64,000 bases of DNA from a virus: IMG/VR virus record IMGVR_UViG_3300025647_000019, positions 1-64,000 of that record. The stretch is one strand, 5' to 3'. Below the pieces are notes generated by a model, which was not told where the DNA came from, searched no databases, and was given only the letters and a program-made list of their open reading frames with translations. Positions 2,896 to 30,667 of the stretch are shown one piece after another. A program made the translations under genes and the position numbers. Each line of letters starts with the position of its first letter. Positions within the stretch are counted from its first letter, which is position 1.

Positions 2896-3939
2896 ATGGC
2901 AACTTATTATGTGGACAATGTAACTGGTGACGATGGAAATAGTGGAACTGGAACCACTGAAGCTTGGGCAACAATTTCTCATGCCGCAAGTGGTCTTTCT
3001 ACTGGCGATCATGTTTACATTAAGGGTGGAACAGATTATGATGAAACTGTAAATGTCAGTGCATATGGGGATTCCAATGCATATAATATTTGGGAGGGAT
3101 ATACAACAACTCCAGGTGATAATGGAAAATTTGTAATACAAGGGTCTGCATATACAAATTGTCTAACATATTCGACAACTTCTAATATTAGAACCACATT
3201 TAGAAATATGGTTTTAAAAGGTGCCCAAGATCACGGTTTAACCATGACAACTGCTTGGGCCCAATCTCGTATGTCTTTTGAAAATTGTGATTTTATTGAT
3301 AATGGAAATTATGGTGTAAGTTCAATAAATAATAATATTGCATTTATTGGATGTAGTTTTACGGGAAATACTGGCGATGGGGTTAGAGTAAATGAAGGTT
3401 ATTTTGTAAGATGCAAATCTCAAAATAATGGTGGACATGGATTTTATTGCGGCCGAGGATCTATTGAATACTGTATTTCAGTTGGGGATTTATATGCAAT
3501 GTACAATGGTAATGGTCCAATAACAAATTGTACGATAGATGGAGTTGATGGGACCACATATTATGGATTACAAATTGCACCTGATGCTGTTTGTATTGGA
3601 TTAAATAATAATGTTTATGGTTGTGATTGGGGAGTGTATAATAATACCTATAATTCGTCATATATTATTCCAATTAATTATGTTGAAGGAAATAACATTA
3701 ATGATTCAATAGTTAGCGGATATTCAAATATATTGCAAAGATATAAAGATTTAAATGTTGACGTTGCTCCAGGATTTACCGATGAAGTTGGTGGAGATTA
3801 TACTTTAGCTTCGGATAGTGAATGTATAAATGCAGGAGTTGATTTTGGTGGATCTGGATCCACAGTTGGAACAGACATCGGAGCGTATCAATCTCAAGAT
3901 GAAGGATCTGGACCTTCTCAAATAATTATAACTGGATAG
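2896..3939 (+). CDS. Right-handed parallel beta-helix protein, putative RBP 2 (paralog of 1177..2205)
   Basis: ATYYVD..TGDDGNSG; IKGGTDY.ETV; DYTL...S.CINAG...DIGAYQSQDEGSG. Confidence 0.7.
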   Translation: MATYYVDNVTGDDGNSGTGTTEAWATISHAASGLSTGDHVYIKGGTDYDETVNVSAYGDSNAYNIWEGYTTTPGDNGKFVIQGSAYTNCLTYSTTSNIRTTFRNMVLKGAQDHGLTMTTAWAQSRMSFENCDFIDNGNYGVSSINNNIAFIGCSFTGNTGDGVRVNEGYFVRCKSQNNGGHGFYCGRGSIEYCISVGDLYAMYNGNGPITNCTIDGVDGTTYYGLQIAPDAVCIGLNNNVYGCDWGVYNNTYNSSYIIPINYVEGNNINDSIVSGYSNILQRYKDLNVDVAPGFTDEVGGDYTLASDSECINAGVDFGGSGSTVGTDIGAYQSQDEGSGPSQIIITG

Positions 3940-9676: not shown

Positions 9677-10104
9677 GAGAAGCTATAAAAGTGGCGTTGA
9701 TTAGTGCAATTGTATTTCTGATAGTTTCAGTTTTCGCAAACTGCTACGCACAATCATATGATATGGATCCAGAATATTATTTAAAAAATGAAAAACACTC
9801 TGGAAATTTCATTGCCTTTTCCAATATGGATTTGTGTGGAACATCATTGGGAAAGTTTTGTAATTTTAGTTTTCCAAACGAAGACCATAGGTCACATGAC
9901 CACACCTTTGTCATAAATGATCATGACCTAACCATTTATTGCTTTCAAAGAGACTTCGACAATGTTCTCAGATTGGTAAGTAGGCGTTATGGATTTTTCG
10001 ATGATTCATTTAATTACATAATAATTGAAGGAAAGGTTTACACAAAAGTAGAAGATAAAACATCCTTTCCAGGATGTCCAGTTCCATTGGGCTCAAAAAA
10101 ATAA
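9673..10104 (+). CDS. Secreted hypothetical protein
   Basis: Hydrophobic N-terminus ending ANCYA/Q. Confidence 0.55.
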   Translation: MREAIKVALISAIVFLIVSVFANCYAQSYDMDPEYYLKNEKHSGNFIAFSNMDLCGTSLGKFCNFSFPNEDHRSHDHTFVINDHDLTIYCFQRDFDNVLRLVSRRYGFFDDSFNYIIIEGKVYTKVEDKTSFPGCPVPLGSKK

Positions 10105-10110
10105 AAATTC

Positions 10111-10142
10111 TTGACACTCATTTTATTTTGGTGTATATTTAT
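10111..10142 (+). promoter_or_regulatory. Sigma70-like promoter of hsp20, overlapping an ATATTTAT motif
   Basis: TTGACA 10111-16, 17 nt spacer, TATATT 10134-39. Confidence 0.65.
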
Positions 10143-10153
10143 TCGTGATAGAG

Positions 10154-10759
10154 CAAATCGCCTGTCCAATTAGATCAATTTGACTAACAGAAAGGAGCCA
10201 ATCATGGCACACAAAAGTCTAATTCAATGGGTAAACACATTTAACACTTCATCAACCTCTGGAGAACCAACTTGGTATTATTGGGACACTACCAATCTTC
10301 CAGTAGCAAATGACTATTTTCCAAGGTCTATTGAGAAGCAAATTGACGAGGCTTTCAATAAGCTTTGGGCAAATCGAAGCAATCCAATTATCAAGGATGA
10401 TGCAAAGCTTCCGAAGACGAACATCTATGAAGATGAAAGTGGATTGGTTATTCAAGCATTCGTTCCGTTTGTTCAGCCAGACGGAGATGAACTTAAGGTT
10501 ATTGTTGATCCTACGACAAATTCTATCAAGATTGAAGTCGAAGCACATCAACCAAAAGAAAAGCGAGAATACTATTTGAATGAAGTCAGCAGAACATCAT
10601 TCAAGAGGTCTTTCGCAATTGATAAAAAGTTCGACACAGATATTGCTACTTGCGATCACAAGGATGGAATTTTAACAATCAAGGTTCCATTTGAAGATGG
10701 AAGCAAAAAGCATACAATTTTTGAAATTACAAATGACTAAAAAATAGACAGGCGATTTG
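10154..10759. repeat. 13 bp perfect inverted repeat flanking hsp20 (10154..10166 and 10747..10759)
   Basis: CAAATCGCCTGTC / GACAGGCGATTTG. Confidence 0.9.
10204..10740 (+). CDS. Small heat-shock protein (Hsp20/alpha-crystallin family)
   Basis: P.TNIYE..; SFKRSF; DGILTIKVP; AAGGAG RBS before ATG 10204. Confidence 0.85.
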   Translation: MAHKSLIQWVNTFNTSSTSGEPTWYYWDTTNLPVANDYFPRSIEKQIDEAFNKLWANRSNPIIKDDAKLPKTNIYEDESGLVIQAFVPFVQPDGDELKVIVDPTTNSIKIEVEAHQPKEKREYYLNEVSRTSFKRSFAIDKKFDTDIATCDHKDGILTIKVPFEDGSKKHTIFEITND

Positions 10760-10764
10760 ACTCA

Positions 10765-10798
10765 GGGGCTTGCATTCCGCAGGCCCCATATTTTTTTG
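10765..10798 (+). terminator. Intrinsic terminator
   Basis: GGGGCTTGC-attcc-GCAGGCCCC followed by T-run. Confidence 0.75.
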
Positions 10799-10906
10799 TT
10801 AAAACCCCCCATTAAAGTACATTTTTTTGAGCTAGATTCAACAATAATATCAAATATAGACCACAATATAGGGCCCATATTTTTTTGGGAAAAATTGAAT
10901 TTTTTA

Positions 10907-17131: not shown

Positions 17132-17337
17132 TGGATTTACATGTACCTGAAGCAAGATTTCTTGCTCTTATTCCTCAAAGGTTTTTAAGAGACGCTATTC
17201 AAAATGGAATGAATAGAAATATCACAGAAACAAAGGAAAGAAATCGCAGACAAGACTGGGAAAAGAATTGGATTGGAAATCCTCAGTATGGGCCTTGGTC
17301 AATGTTGCTTGGTTTTAGTCGAAAGGCAAGGCGATGA
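17131..17337 (+). CDS. Hypothetical protein
   Basis: AAGGAG RBS, TAATG overlap. Confidence 0.55.
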   Translation: MDLHVPEARFLALIPQRFLRDAIQNGMNRNITETKERNRRQDWEKNWIGNPQYGPWSMLLGFSRKARR

Positions 17338-18026
17338 TTGATTGTGGAGGAACTTGGTGTTTTGATATAAATTGTGTATCATGTTGTCCACATCATCATT
17401 ATACGGAAAGGGAACTTTCCCTTTCAACTCAATCATTGAAAGAAGCAGTCATTGATGAATTAAATGCTGAAATTGAATTGGCAAAAAACACCCCTGTTCC
17501 TGAAGAATTGTGGGGAAATAAATTTTTTTGGGATACAAAATATCATTGTTGGTCGTTACTGAGTTATCCAAACCATCATTTTACAAAAAAAGAACATATG
17601 GAAAATCCAAAATGGGACAAATATATTGAAAAATATGAAAAACATATGGCAAGTCCTGAAATGGCAAAATACAAAAGATGGGCACAAATTGACATGAAAG
17701 AACGTGACGATGATGAAATGGAAAGGTTCGTAAAAAGAATGAATGATGATATTCGAAGGTGCGGATGTGGAATAACAGATCAAAAGGAAACAGACCCAAT
17801 AAATCATCCATCACATTATTGCAATCGTTCAATGGAAGCAATTGACATTATTGAAATGTGTATATCAATTGAGAAAAATCCAATGGTTGCTTATAATATG
17901 AGCAATGTCCTCAAGTATTTGCTCAGGTTCAGGGATAAGGGCAAAGACCTAGAGGATCTTCAGAAAGCCCGCTGGTATCTCAATCGTATGATTGATAAAG
18001 TCGGTGAAGAAGTGTCCCCAGATTGA
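17334..18026 (+). CDS. DUF3310 (T7 gp1.7-like) domain protein with N-terminal extension
   Basis: DPINHPSHY..EAIDII..NVLKYL.R...KG..EDLQKARWYL. Confidence 0.75.
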   Translation: MIDCGGTWCFDINCVSCCPHHHYTERELSLSTQSLKEAVIDELNAEIELAKNTPVPEELWGNKFFWDTKYHCWSLLSYPNHHFTKKEHMENPKWDKYIEKYEKHMASPEMAKYKRWAQIDMKERDDDEMERFVKRMNDDIRRCGCGITDQKETDPINHPSHYCNRSMEAIDIIEMCISIEKNPMVAYNMSNVLKYLLRFRDKGKDLEDLQKARWYLNRMIDKVGEEVSPD

Positions 18027-18147
18027 CCTGTACTCAACGTAAACCCAAGGCCCTTTATGATAGGATGTCCAAAAAAACGCGCGCTTATACACACGTATAG
18101 GAGCTCATTATGTATATGTAAAATAATAACTTAGCAAAATTAAATTA

Positions 18148-29170: not shown

Positions 29171-30667
29171 ATGAGTGAACTACTTAGAAGCGGTAAGGTT
29201 GGTAATATCCAGGTCAAACAACTCCAAGAACAACGTGAAACTGTTATTAAGCGTTGGGAACAAACTGGATTATTAGAAGGTCTTACTAAAGAAAAGAAAA
29301 ACATCATTGCTCAGCTTATGGAAAATGAAGCTGGACATTTGATGACGGAAGCAAACAACGAATTAAGCAATATTGCTGGATTCGACATTGCTGCATTCCC
29401 GATGGTACGTCGTGTATTCAGCAGACTATTGGCAAATGATATTGTATCAGTTCAGCCATTAAACCTTCCTTCTGGATTGTTATTCTACATTGATCATCAA
29501 GTTGGTACTACACAAGGTCACGCTCCAGCAGCATGGCAAAGTGTTTATGATGCCCACTATGACAATGGTGGATATGGATACAGTAGGGGTGCTGCAACTT
29601 CAAATGCTGAAGCATTAGTTGCAACAGGTACGGTTAATAGCGATGGTCAAATGACTTTAGCTTACTCTGGTGGAGTTGAAGGACTTTCTTCATTACAAAT
29701 CCAGGATGACGGTGGAAACACTCTTTACTTTACTATTGATCCACAAAGTTGGACAGATGATTTCTTTGCCAACAATCAGATCGTAGTTAAGGTTAAAACT
29801 GCTGAAACTATTACTGGTGGTACAATTGGTCTTTCAGCTAGAACTGTTTGGAATAGTTATGCCGATCTTGAAGCTAATTCAGCAATGACTGAAGTCAAGT
29901 TAGTCGTAACTAGCACAACCGTGTCAGTTAGCTCACGTAAGATGAAAGCTCACTGGACTCCAGAATTAGCACAAGACCTTGCAGCATACCACAGTGTTGA
30001 TGCTGAAGCAGAACTAACTGGATTGCTTTCCGAGGAACTTGCCGCTGAAATTGATCGTGAAATTATTCGCGACCTAATCAATGTAGCTGCATTCCAGGAT
30101 CAATGGAATTACAGTAGATCTGCATCAAGTGTGCGTGTTGATGGTGTAACTGTTTCACCTGATACTGCATCTGGATATGTGACACAAAAAGAATGGAACC
30201 AGACATTGATCACTAAGATCAACAAAGTTTCAGCAGCTATTCATAAGGCAACTCTACGTGGTGGAGCCAACTGGATCGTATGCTCAACTGAAGTTGGATC
30301 TGTCTTAGAAGATCTTGAAAAGTTCCACGCAGTAAACAAGGATGACGACTTCCAATTCAATATGGGTATCGAACAAATCGGTAGTCTAGGAAGCCGCTAT
30401 ACTGTTTACAAGGATCCTTATTTACCACAAAGCGTCCTGCTTATGGGTCATAAGGGCTCAAGCTTCATGGATACTGGATATGTGTATGCTCCATACATTC
30501 CATTCCAGTTGACTCCAGTTGTTCTTGATCCGGACGATTTCACACCTCGTAAGGGTATCATGACTCGTTACGCTAAGAAGGTAGTTAATAACCGCTACTT
30601 TGGTTTAATTAGAGTCATTTTCCCAAGCGAATATGATATCATTCATCAAGATCAAATTCCAAGTTAA
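29171..30667 (+). CDS. Major capsid protein (T4 gp23-like)
   Basis: VSVQP...PSGL.F; RKMKAHWTPELAQDL; AEIDREI; YAPYIP; GIMTRY. Confidence 0.95.
   Translation: MSELLRSGKVGNIQVKQLQEQRETVIKRWEQTGLLEGLTKEKKNIIAQLMENEAGHLMTEANNELSNIAGFDIAAFPMVRRVFSRLLANDIVSVQPLNLPSGLLFYIDHQVGTTQGHAPAAWQSVYDAHYDNGGYGYSRGAATSNAEALVATGTVNSDGQMTLAYSGGVEGLSSLQIQDDGGNTLYFTIDPQSWTDDFFANNQIVVKVKTAETITGGTIGLSARTVWNSYADLEANSAMTEVKLVVTSTTVSVSSRKMKAHWTPELAQDLAAYHSVDAEAELTGLLSEELAAEIDREIIRDLINVAAFQDQWNYSRSASSVRVDGVTVSPDTASGYVTQKEWNQTLITKINKVSAAIHKATLRGGANWIVCSTEVGSVLEDLEKFHAVNKDDDFQFNMGIEQIGSLGSRYTVYKDPYLPQSVLLMGHKGSSFMDTGYVYAPYIPFQLTPVVLDPDDFTPRKGIMTRYAKKVVNNRYFGLIRVIFPSEYDIIHQDQIPS

Follow-up and report, generated by a model that had tools for sequence, protein, structure and literature searches.

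Co-varying complementarity between leader and 3' UTR points to a probable end-closing helix in a phage hsp20 mRNA with a predicted competing 5' hairpin

The predicted mRNA of a phage hsp20 gene carries complementary segments in its leader and in its 3' UTR, and in the four lineages that we compared these segments have co-varied, each lineage in its own way, while the geometry of their placement at the transcript ends has been conserved. Based on this comparison, we consider it likely that the long-range helix that they specify is a selected RNA structure, and we infer that it forms in vivo. The bases of its 5' arm can also fold locally into a hairpin at the very start of the RNA. Taken as a whole, we judge it on balance probable that this is a message with two alternative folds, closed at its ends and with a controlled lifetime.

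Results

The phage and its hsp20 transcription unit

The window, that is, the whole stretch of DNA analysed (64,000 nt), corresponds to the first 64 kb of an IMG/VR virus contig of 93,964 bp with an estimated completeness of ~47% (CheckV). The contig contains T4-type terminase, portal, major head, sheath and family-B polymerase genes, and its source is an uncultured T4-like phage. Two protein matches hint at a Bacteroidota host: the closest cellular relatives of Hsp20 are encoded by Chitinophagaceae MAGs (L024 and L025, 27-31% identity), and the closest cultured match of the major capsid protein (window 29171-30667) is from the Baltic Flavobacterium phage immuto, at 37% identity. In contrast to this hint, the phage genes carry strong Shine-Dalgarno sites. 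The DNA of the window has been found unchanged in metagenomes of freshwater, estuary and marine origin dated 2017 to 2025, and the sequencing runs listed for the hsp20 stretch include no RNA run.

The hsp20 gene forms a self-contained unit on the + strand (10111-10798) that comprises a promoter, a 57-nt leader, the coding sequence and a 57-nt 3' UTR with a terminator. The TTGACA-17-TATATT promoter (10111-10139) recognised in the first-pass annotation, with TTGACA at 10111-10116 and TATATT at 10134-10139, holds up, matching the consensus at 11 of 12 positions, as does the promoter of L006, one of the relatives described below. No other site on the 93,964-bp contig matches TTGAC[AT]-N16-18-TATA[AT]T, so that hsp20 appears to be alone among its genes in having a host-type promoter close to the consensus. 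The leader alignment indicates that the -10 box, and the 12 nt that separate it from a GAGC motif, are kept in all four lineages, which places the predicted start near G10147. A second sequence, TATATTTA, was considered as a repeated phage promoter and rejected, as it has only two non-coding copies.

The coding sequence (10204-10740, + strand) specifies 178 amino acids and belongs to Pfam PF00011 (E 4.1e-10) and PHROG 432. It is preceded by the Shine-Dalgarno sequence AAAGGAG (10191-10197), and the AUG is enclosed by a small hairpin, GCCA[AUCA]UGGC (H2; 10197-10208, + strand), with a predicted dG of -5.0 kcal/mol and a z-score of -2.6. L003, another relative, retains this structure with one compensatory C-G to U-A change that is tied to codon 2, and we tentatively regard the modelled H2 as a conserved AUG hairpin. 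The unit ends in an intrinsic terminator (10765-10798, + strand), in which a stem-loop (10765-10787) with a 9-bp stem, seven of its pairs being G-C, is followed by a T-run. A 24-nt direct repeat of 88% identity (AGGCCCCATATTTTTTTG... and AGGGCCCATATTTTTTTG..., window 10781-10804 and 10870-10893) is located in the 236-nt spacer downstream of hsp20, its second copy having no obvious stem.

Between the predicted start and the Shine-Dalgarno sequence lies a near-invariant element, the H1 box TTAGATCAATTTGACTAA (10170-10187, + strand), which had been noticed earlier as an imperfect palindrome before the ribosome-binding site. The palindrome is real: a 16-mer within it is identical in the window locus (W), L003 and L004, and in L006 UUC/GAA replaces UCA/UGA, so that both pairs are compensatory and the bulged A is kept. 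As an RNA hairpin, however, with the possible form UAG-A-UCA[AUU]UGA-CUA, it is only marginally stable, reaching about 0 kcal/mol by itself at 37 °C in the folding model; the box is therefore more likely a candidate recognition site for a bound factor. CIRCE, the operator of HrcA, is a 9-bp perfect inverted repeat, TTAGCACTC-N9-GAGTGCTAA. We rejected an assignment of the H1 box to this element, because the box is 18 nt long, has only the outer TTAG...CTAA in common with it and possesses unequal half-sites on account of its conserved extra A. Scans with leader DNA patterns identified no further relatives, 14 of the 15 matches to the 16-mer, and L042, being attributable to chance. The minimum free energy (MFE) model of W also pairs the H1 box with the last part of the coding sequence, but we rejected this second helix, since no complement was found by eye in L003 or L004.

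Complementary arms at the two ends of the message

The long-range helix is composed of a 5' arm, GAG followed by a 13-mer (10151-10166, + strand), and a 3' arm, GACAGGCGAUUUG-A-CUC (10747-10763, + strand), which begins 6 nt past the stop codon and is separated from the terminator stem by 1 nt. The 13-mer, CAAATCGCCTGTC, occupies 10154-10166 and its exact reverse complement 10747-10759, and GAG (10151-10153) pairs with CTC (10761-10763) over the bulged A10760. Both these coordinates and the placement of the arms, just past the predicted start and between stop codon and terminator, agree with the first-pass annotation, and the two copies of the 13-mer are the only ones in the window or in the contig. 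The arms are likewise GC-rich relative to their surroundings, at 54% against 33.6% contig-wide. In models of the full transcript, each base of the 5' arm pairs with the 3' UTR with a probability of 1.0.

A 13-nt repeat is by itself unremarkable, given that the contig contains 14 exact inverted repeats of at least 13 nt within 3 kb, against 11.3 +/- 3.8 in block shuffles. Among pairs with both arms in the ~8% of DNA that is non-coding, the hsp20 pair is the longest in the contig at 13 nt, the runner-up having 10, and shuffling the 3' UTR gave a 13-nt match in 0 of 5000 trials. Within the W genome alone the repeat is barely beyond chance, and the decisive evidence is comparative. An outer perfect 12-nt inverted repeat (GCTCAAAAAAAT at 10091-10102 and ATTTTTTTGAGC at 10821-10832) brackets the whole unit including promoter and terminator, and none of 500 local shuffles reached 12 nt.

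Lineage-specific co-variation preserves the pairing

Proteins related to this Hsp20 fall into about 20 clusters at 90% identity, and among these the DNA comparison covers four independent lineages, namely W and the complete loci L003, L004 and L006, which were found by protein-pattern scans of viral, metagenome and genome contigs and whose Hsp20 proteins each show ~46% identity. L005 is the same as L003, L007 is the same as L006 (0 mismatches in 739 nt), and L008, a relative of L006, comprises the 3' half only. The other matches from the protein-pattern scans were two distant Chitinophagaceae Hsp20 genes, and at E 1e-3 the cultured-phage collection yielded no relative by either DNA or protein.

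Each of the three relatives has its own version of the pairing. In L003, GGGGCCTATCT (2643-2653) pairs with AGATAGGCCCC (3236-3246); in L004, GTGGAGCAAGATTG (48-61) pairs with CAATCTTGCTCTAC (647-660) through a helix that includes one G.U pair; and in L006, CCAAGAGCCTA-T-CCC (2829-2843) pairs with GGG-TAGGCTCTTGG (3430-3443). The helix thereby measures 13+3 bp in W, against 11-14 bp in the relatives. RNAduplex energies with shuffles were uninformative, being dominated by the GC-rich terminators, and we used instead the longest perfect match between 5' UTR and 3' UTR, comparing cognate with non-cognate combinations and with shuffled 3' UTRs. The cognate matches were 13, 11, 11 and 11 nt long for W, L003, L004 and L006, whereas all 12 non-cognate combinations gave 5-9 nt, and the observed match was reached by 0, 7, 5 and 4 shuffles per 5000, respectively. 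Furthermore, at least five leader columns (9, 11, 12, 13 and 19), which are paired in at least two lineages, hold different Watson-Crick pairs in different lineages, with column 13 appearing as C-G, G-C, U-A and A-U in the four. As the changes in these columns are matched in the partner, the most variable leader positions are the ones tracked by the 3' arm. Conservation and covariation in all three relatives compared thus lend support to the earlier proposal of a long-range RNA helix that joins the transcript ends.

As a negative control, the match test was applied to 15 cultured Kyanoviridae hsp20 loci (L027-L041, from cyanophages, one pelagiphage and one Methylophilales phage), in which cognate matches were 5-8 nt long, with a mean of 6.5 against a non-cognate mean of 6.7. 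That these loci lie at background indicates that the test is specific and that the helix belongs to this hsp20 lineage; a general feature of phage hsp20 genes was accordingly rejected, there being no cognate signal in the 15 loci, and a 5+4 bp match seen by eye in ACG-2014f is within noise. In six of the 15 cyanophage loci (ACG-2014f, S-SRM01, S-SM2, P-HM2, S-PM2 and S-N03), hsp20 lies directly downstream of regA, which encodes a translation repressor, with one small ORF between the two genes in S-SRM01.

The comparison also bears on the alternative that the repeat acts at the level of DNA, either as the ends of a mobile or invertible cassette, as the first-pass annotation had suggested, or as paired protein-binding sites. 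The arms flank exactly one gene, and W has the outer 12-nt inverted repeat as well, as such elements might. However, it is complementarity that is kept and not sequence, and the paired segment shifts from one half of the leader hairpin H0 (described below) to the other, covering its 5' half in L004 and its 3' half in L003 and L006, which would be intolerable for a protein site. In addition, orientation and rough synteny are common to all four lineages, and four DNA metagenome runs over the stretch, all of low depth, contained the identical sequence with 0 variants and 0 joints. The adjacent ORFs match no Pfam family, so that no recombinase domain is detected there, and L003 and L006 lack the outer repeat, which is confined to W. 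Finally, G.U pairs, which would be A.C on the opposite strand, are found on the sense strand only (in the helix extension of L004 and in H0 of W and L004). Since the arms also lie inside the predicted transcripts, these observations favour RNA over DNA, and we regard a DNA-level role as extremely unlikely.

A competing hairpin at the 5' end

The bases of the 5' arm can form another structure, which was absent from the first-pass annotation. This hairpin, H0, is a local 5'-terminal fold of 7 bp, GAUAG-A-GC[AAAUC]GC-CUGUC (10147-10166, + strand), that begins at the predicted +1 and cannot coexist with the long-range helix. In transcripts modelled only as far as the stop codon, the MFE structure adopted by the 5' end is H0 in each of the four lineages, with dG values of -5.9 to -7.4 kcal/mol and z-scores of -4.3, -1.3, -2.8 and -4.9. 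All cells of the H0 alignment pair across the lineages, with two compensatory pairs and two G.U changes, the compensatory ones in L004 being G-C to U-A and A-U to G-C. For H0 and the H1 box taken together, every cell again pairs, four pairs having changed on both sides and two to G.U, and slid controls are 25-37% paired.

The long-range duplex is far more stable than this hairpin (-23 to -30 kcal/mol versus -6 to -7 kcal/mol), and in full-length models of all four lineages, which are thermodynamic, leave aside ribosomes and kinetics and use predicted transcript ends, the probability of pairing with the 3' UTR is 1.0 and that of H0 is 0.0. In every case the segment paired with the 3' arm takes in some or all of the H0 loop, together with the 5' strand (L004), the 3' strand (L003 and L006) or both strands (W). 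The arm thus always lies over the loop, as expected for invasion through the loop.

Transcripts of small heat-shock genes include well-known RNA thermometers, such as ROSE and the leader of Synechocystis hsp17, and a temperature switch was among the functions suggested for the helix in the first-pass annotation. The phage transcript resembles these thermometers in that a structured leader precedes an hsp20-family gene and a weak hairpin, H2, lies over the AUG. In contrast to them, it has no Rfam match, cmscan against Rfam 15 with E up to 10 giving noise only and no family, and its predicted Shine-Dalgarno/AUG accessibility does not rise with temperature. Folding at several temperatures predicts that the long helix is fully formed from 15 to 45 °C, with a probability above 0.99. 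The predicted accessibility of the region from the Shine-Dalgarno sequence to the AUG is 0.19-0.47 whether or not the 3' arm is present, and it shows no trend between 10 and 37 °C; with the AUG held by H2, the modelled accessibility is 0.41-0.45 over the same range. The long helix was therefore rejected as a thermometer.

These models likewise allow a comparison with the hok mRNA of the hok/Sok system of plasmid R1, in which the ends pair (tac/fbi) and a metastable 5' hairpin forms before the 3' end exists (summarised in PMC9841398). As in hok, the modelled 5' end of the hsp20 transcript would pair with its downstream neighbour first (H0, in 4/4 truncated transcripts) and with the 3' end later (4/4 full-length transcripts). 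It is conceivable that hsp20 has a hok-like completion switch on translation, in which the closed full-length mRNA is either stored in an inert state or the only translatable form, H0 is the other state, and 3' processing or heat serves as the trigger. The layout, with an extreme 5' end that pairs either with the adjacent downstream region or with the 3' end, is that of hok (PMC9841398), and a small hairpin holds the AUG. In hok, however, closure sequesters the Shine-Dalgarno sequence, whereas the predicted accessibility of this region in hsp20 is unaffected by the 3' arm and by temperature. Moreover, neither arm touches the Shine-Dalgarno sequence, and the end of the 5' arm could form no more than 3 bp with the Shine-Dalgarno sequence, a match that is not conserved. 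Unlike hok, with its 3' trimming, antisense RNA and toxin, none of which is seen or predicted for hsp20, this is a chaperone gene without an antisense partner, and the promoter scan identified no strong antisense promoter within 10100-10800. A switch of this kind therefore appears unlikely.

Position of the helix relative to the transcript ends

In all four lineages, the 5' arm lies within the first ~22 nt past the predicted start. The distance from the 3' arm to the terminator stem is 1 nt in W, 2 nt in L003 and 1 nt in L004, so that the long-range helix and the terminator hairpin can stack. The distance from the stop codon to the 3' arm varies, being 6, 25, 11 and 15 nt in W, L003, L004 and L006, which suggests that opening by terminating ribosomes is not a conserved feature; in W, where the stop codon is 6 nt away, a terminating ribosome would disrupt the 3' arm for a short time. 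In the closed form, about 4, 10, 1 and 7 nt would be left single-stranded at the 5' end in the four lineages, and its protection of the 5' end itself would thus be non-uniform. H0 would guard the 5' end better than the long helix.

A stacked arrangement could in principle serve as a processing stalk, cut by RNase III or a similar enzyme in read-through RNA from upstream late genes to free a defined hsp20 mRNA, in the manner of rRNA leader-trailer stems. Such read-through RNA is plausible, as there is no terminator between the upstream gene and the hsp20 promoter, and the helix and the abutting terminator stem together amount to ~23-25 bp in W, L003 and L004. This sum assumes stacking, however, and the helix itself has 11-16 bp with a bulge, well under two turns (20 bp or more), which speaks against the RNase III stalk envisaged in the first-pass annotation. 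Given also that L006 is without a terminator stem and that the unit has its own strong promoter, we consider a stalk improbable.

In L006 and L007, a terminator hairpin was not detected; immediately behind the 3' arm comes a T-run, ATTTTTTCTTT, and then the TTTACA-17-TATAAT promoter of the next gene (L006:3430-3480). The closure helix of L006 might substitute for the terminator stem. This arrangement, and the 1-2 nt between arm and terminator in the other lineages, would be consistent with a helix that is part of the termination signal, the nascent 3' arm and the 5' end either aiding the terminator hairpin or, in L006, replacing the terminator. Yet no known intrinsic terminator has a ~590-nt loop, and the time available for termination is probably too brief for pairing over such a distance. 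In addition, L008 has no T-run right behind its arm, and the idea is supported by a single lineage; we view a role in termination as very unlikely. A broader proposal of a completion switch on a non-toxin gene, in which H0 guards the nascent RNA and is replaced by end closure once the 3' UTR is made, and in which closure itself is the terminator stem of L006 and needs the RNA's own 5' end over a ~590-nt loop, also strikes us as improbable.

Discussion

We propose the following sequence of events. During synthesis, the first ~20 nt of the transcript would fold as H0. Once the 3' UTR had been made, the anti-H0 segment, located 1-2 nt upstream of the terminator hairpin, would invade H0 via its loop, and the product would be the far more stable 13+3 bp helix (11-14 bp in the relatives), by which the whole message is closed as a loop. 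This closing helix could stack on the terminator hairpin, and the closed form would keep endonucleases away from the leader and from the AU-rich 3' UTR, thereby setting the lifetime of the mRNA. Closure of the UTRs against the terminator is conserved, while Shine-Dalgarno accessibility and temperature response are unchanged, and for this reason our analysis favours decay control as the main role of the helix, a reading to which we would give slightly less than an even chance. T4-type phages shut off host-type promoters early in infection, and it is plausible that a stabilised message would keep the chaperone supplied later in infection. The two-state design of H0 and long helix may matter in further ways.

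To our knowledge, helices between 5' and 3' UTRs have been described for only a handful of bacterial-type mRNAs (hbs, icaR, hilD and type I toxins), few of them with evolutionary support. [quoted passage not shown] The hsp20 transcript is similar in being a short monocistronic mRNA of less than 700 nt with a perfect helix of ~14 bp between 5' UTR and preterminator region and a Shine-Dalgarno sequence outside the helix. Both cases also combine long leader/3' UTR complementarity with compensatory change, which here takes the form of natural co-variation. Unlike the hsp20 arm, the 5' arm of hbs is preceded by two leader hairpins instead of lying at the very 5' end, and a competing hairpin has not been described for it. 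Furthermore, hbs belongs to the host and encodes an unrelated protein, and the effect of its helix on cleavage and half-life is proven, whereas the hsp20 helix is known from sequence and models. [quoted passage not shown] The hsp20 3' UTR likewise contains a segment that pairs with the leader of its own mRNA, but the Shine-Dalgarno sequence lies ~25 nt from the helix.

In the present case, natural co-variation supports a 5'/3' UTR helix in a phage chaperone gene, and this helix has a fixed position relative to the terminator and a rival 5' hairpin of a kind so far familiar from toxin mRNAs. If confirmed, the unit would provide a compact and portable model of ~650 nt, with its own promoter and terminator, for the way in which closure acts on mRNA lifetime, and perhaps on termination, during infection, as well as a candidate part for the stabilisation of synthetic mRNAs.

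Elsewhere in the window, a GC-rich 9-mer inverted repeat (GGGCCTTGG at 17290-17298 and CCAAGGCCC at 18045-18053) flanks a 230-aa ORF (17334-18026). This pair may represent a second gene-enclosing helix, or chance, and its left arm possibly lies within a short upstream ORF.
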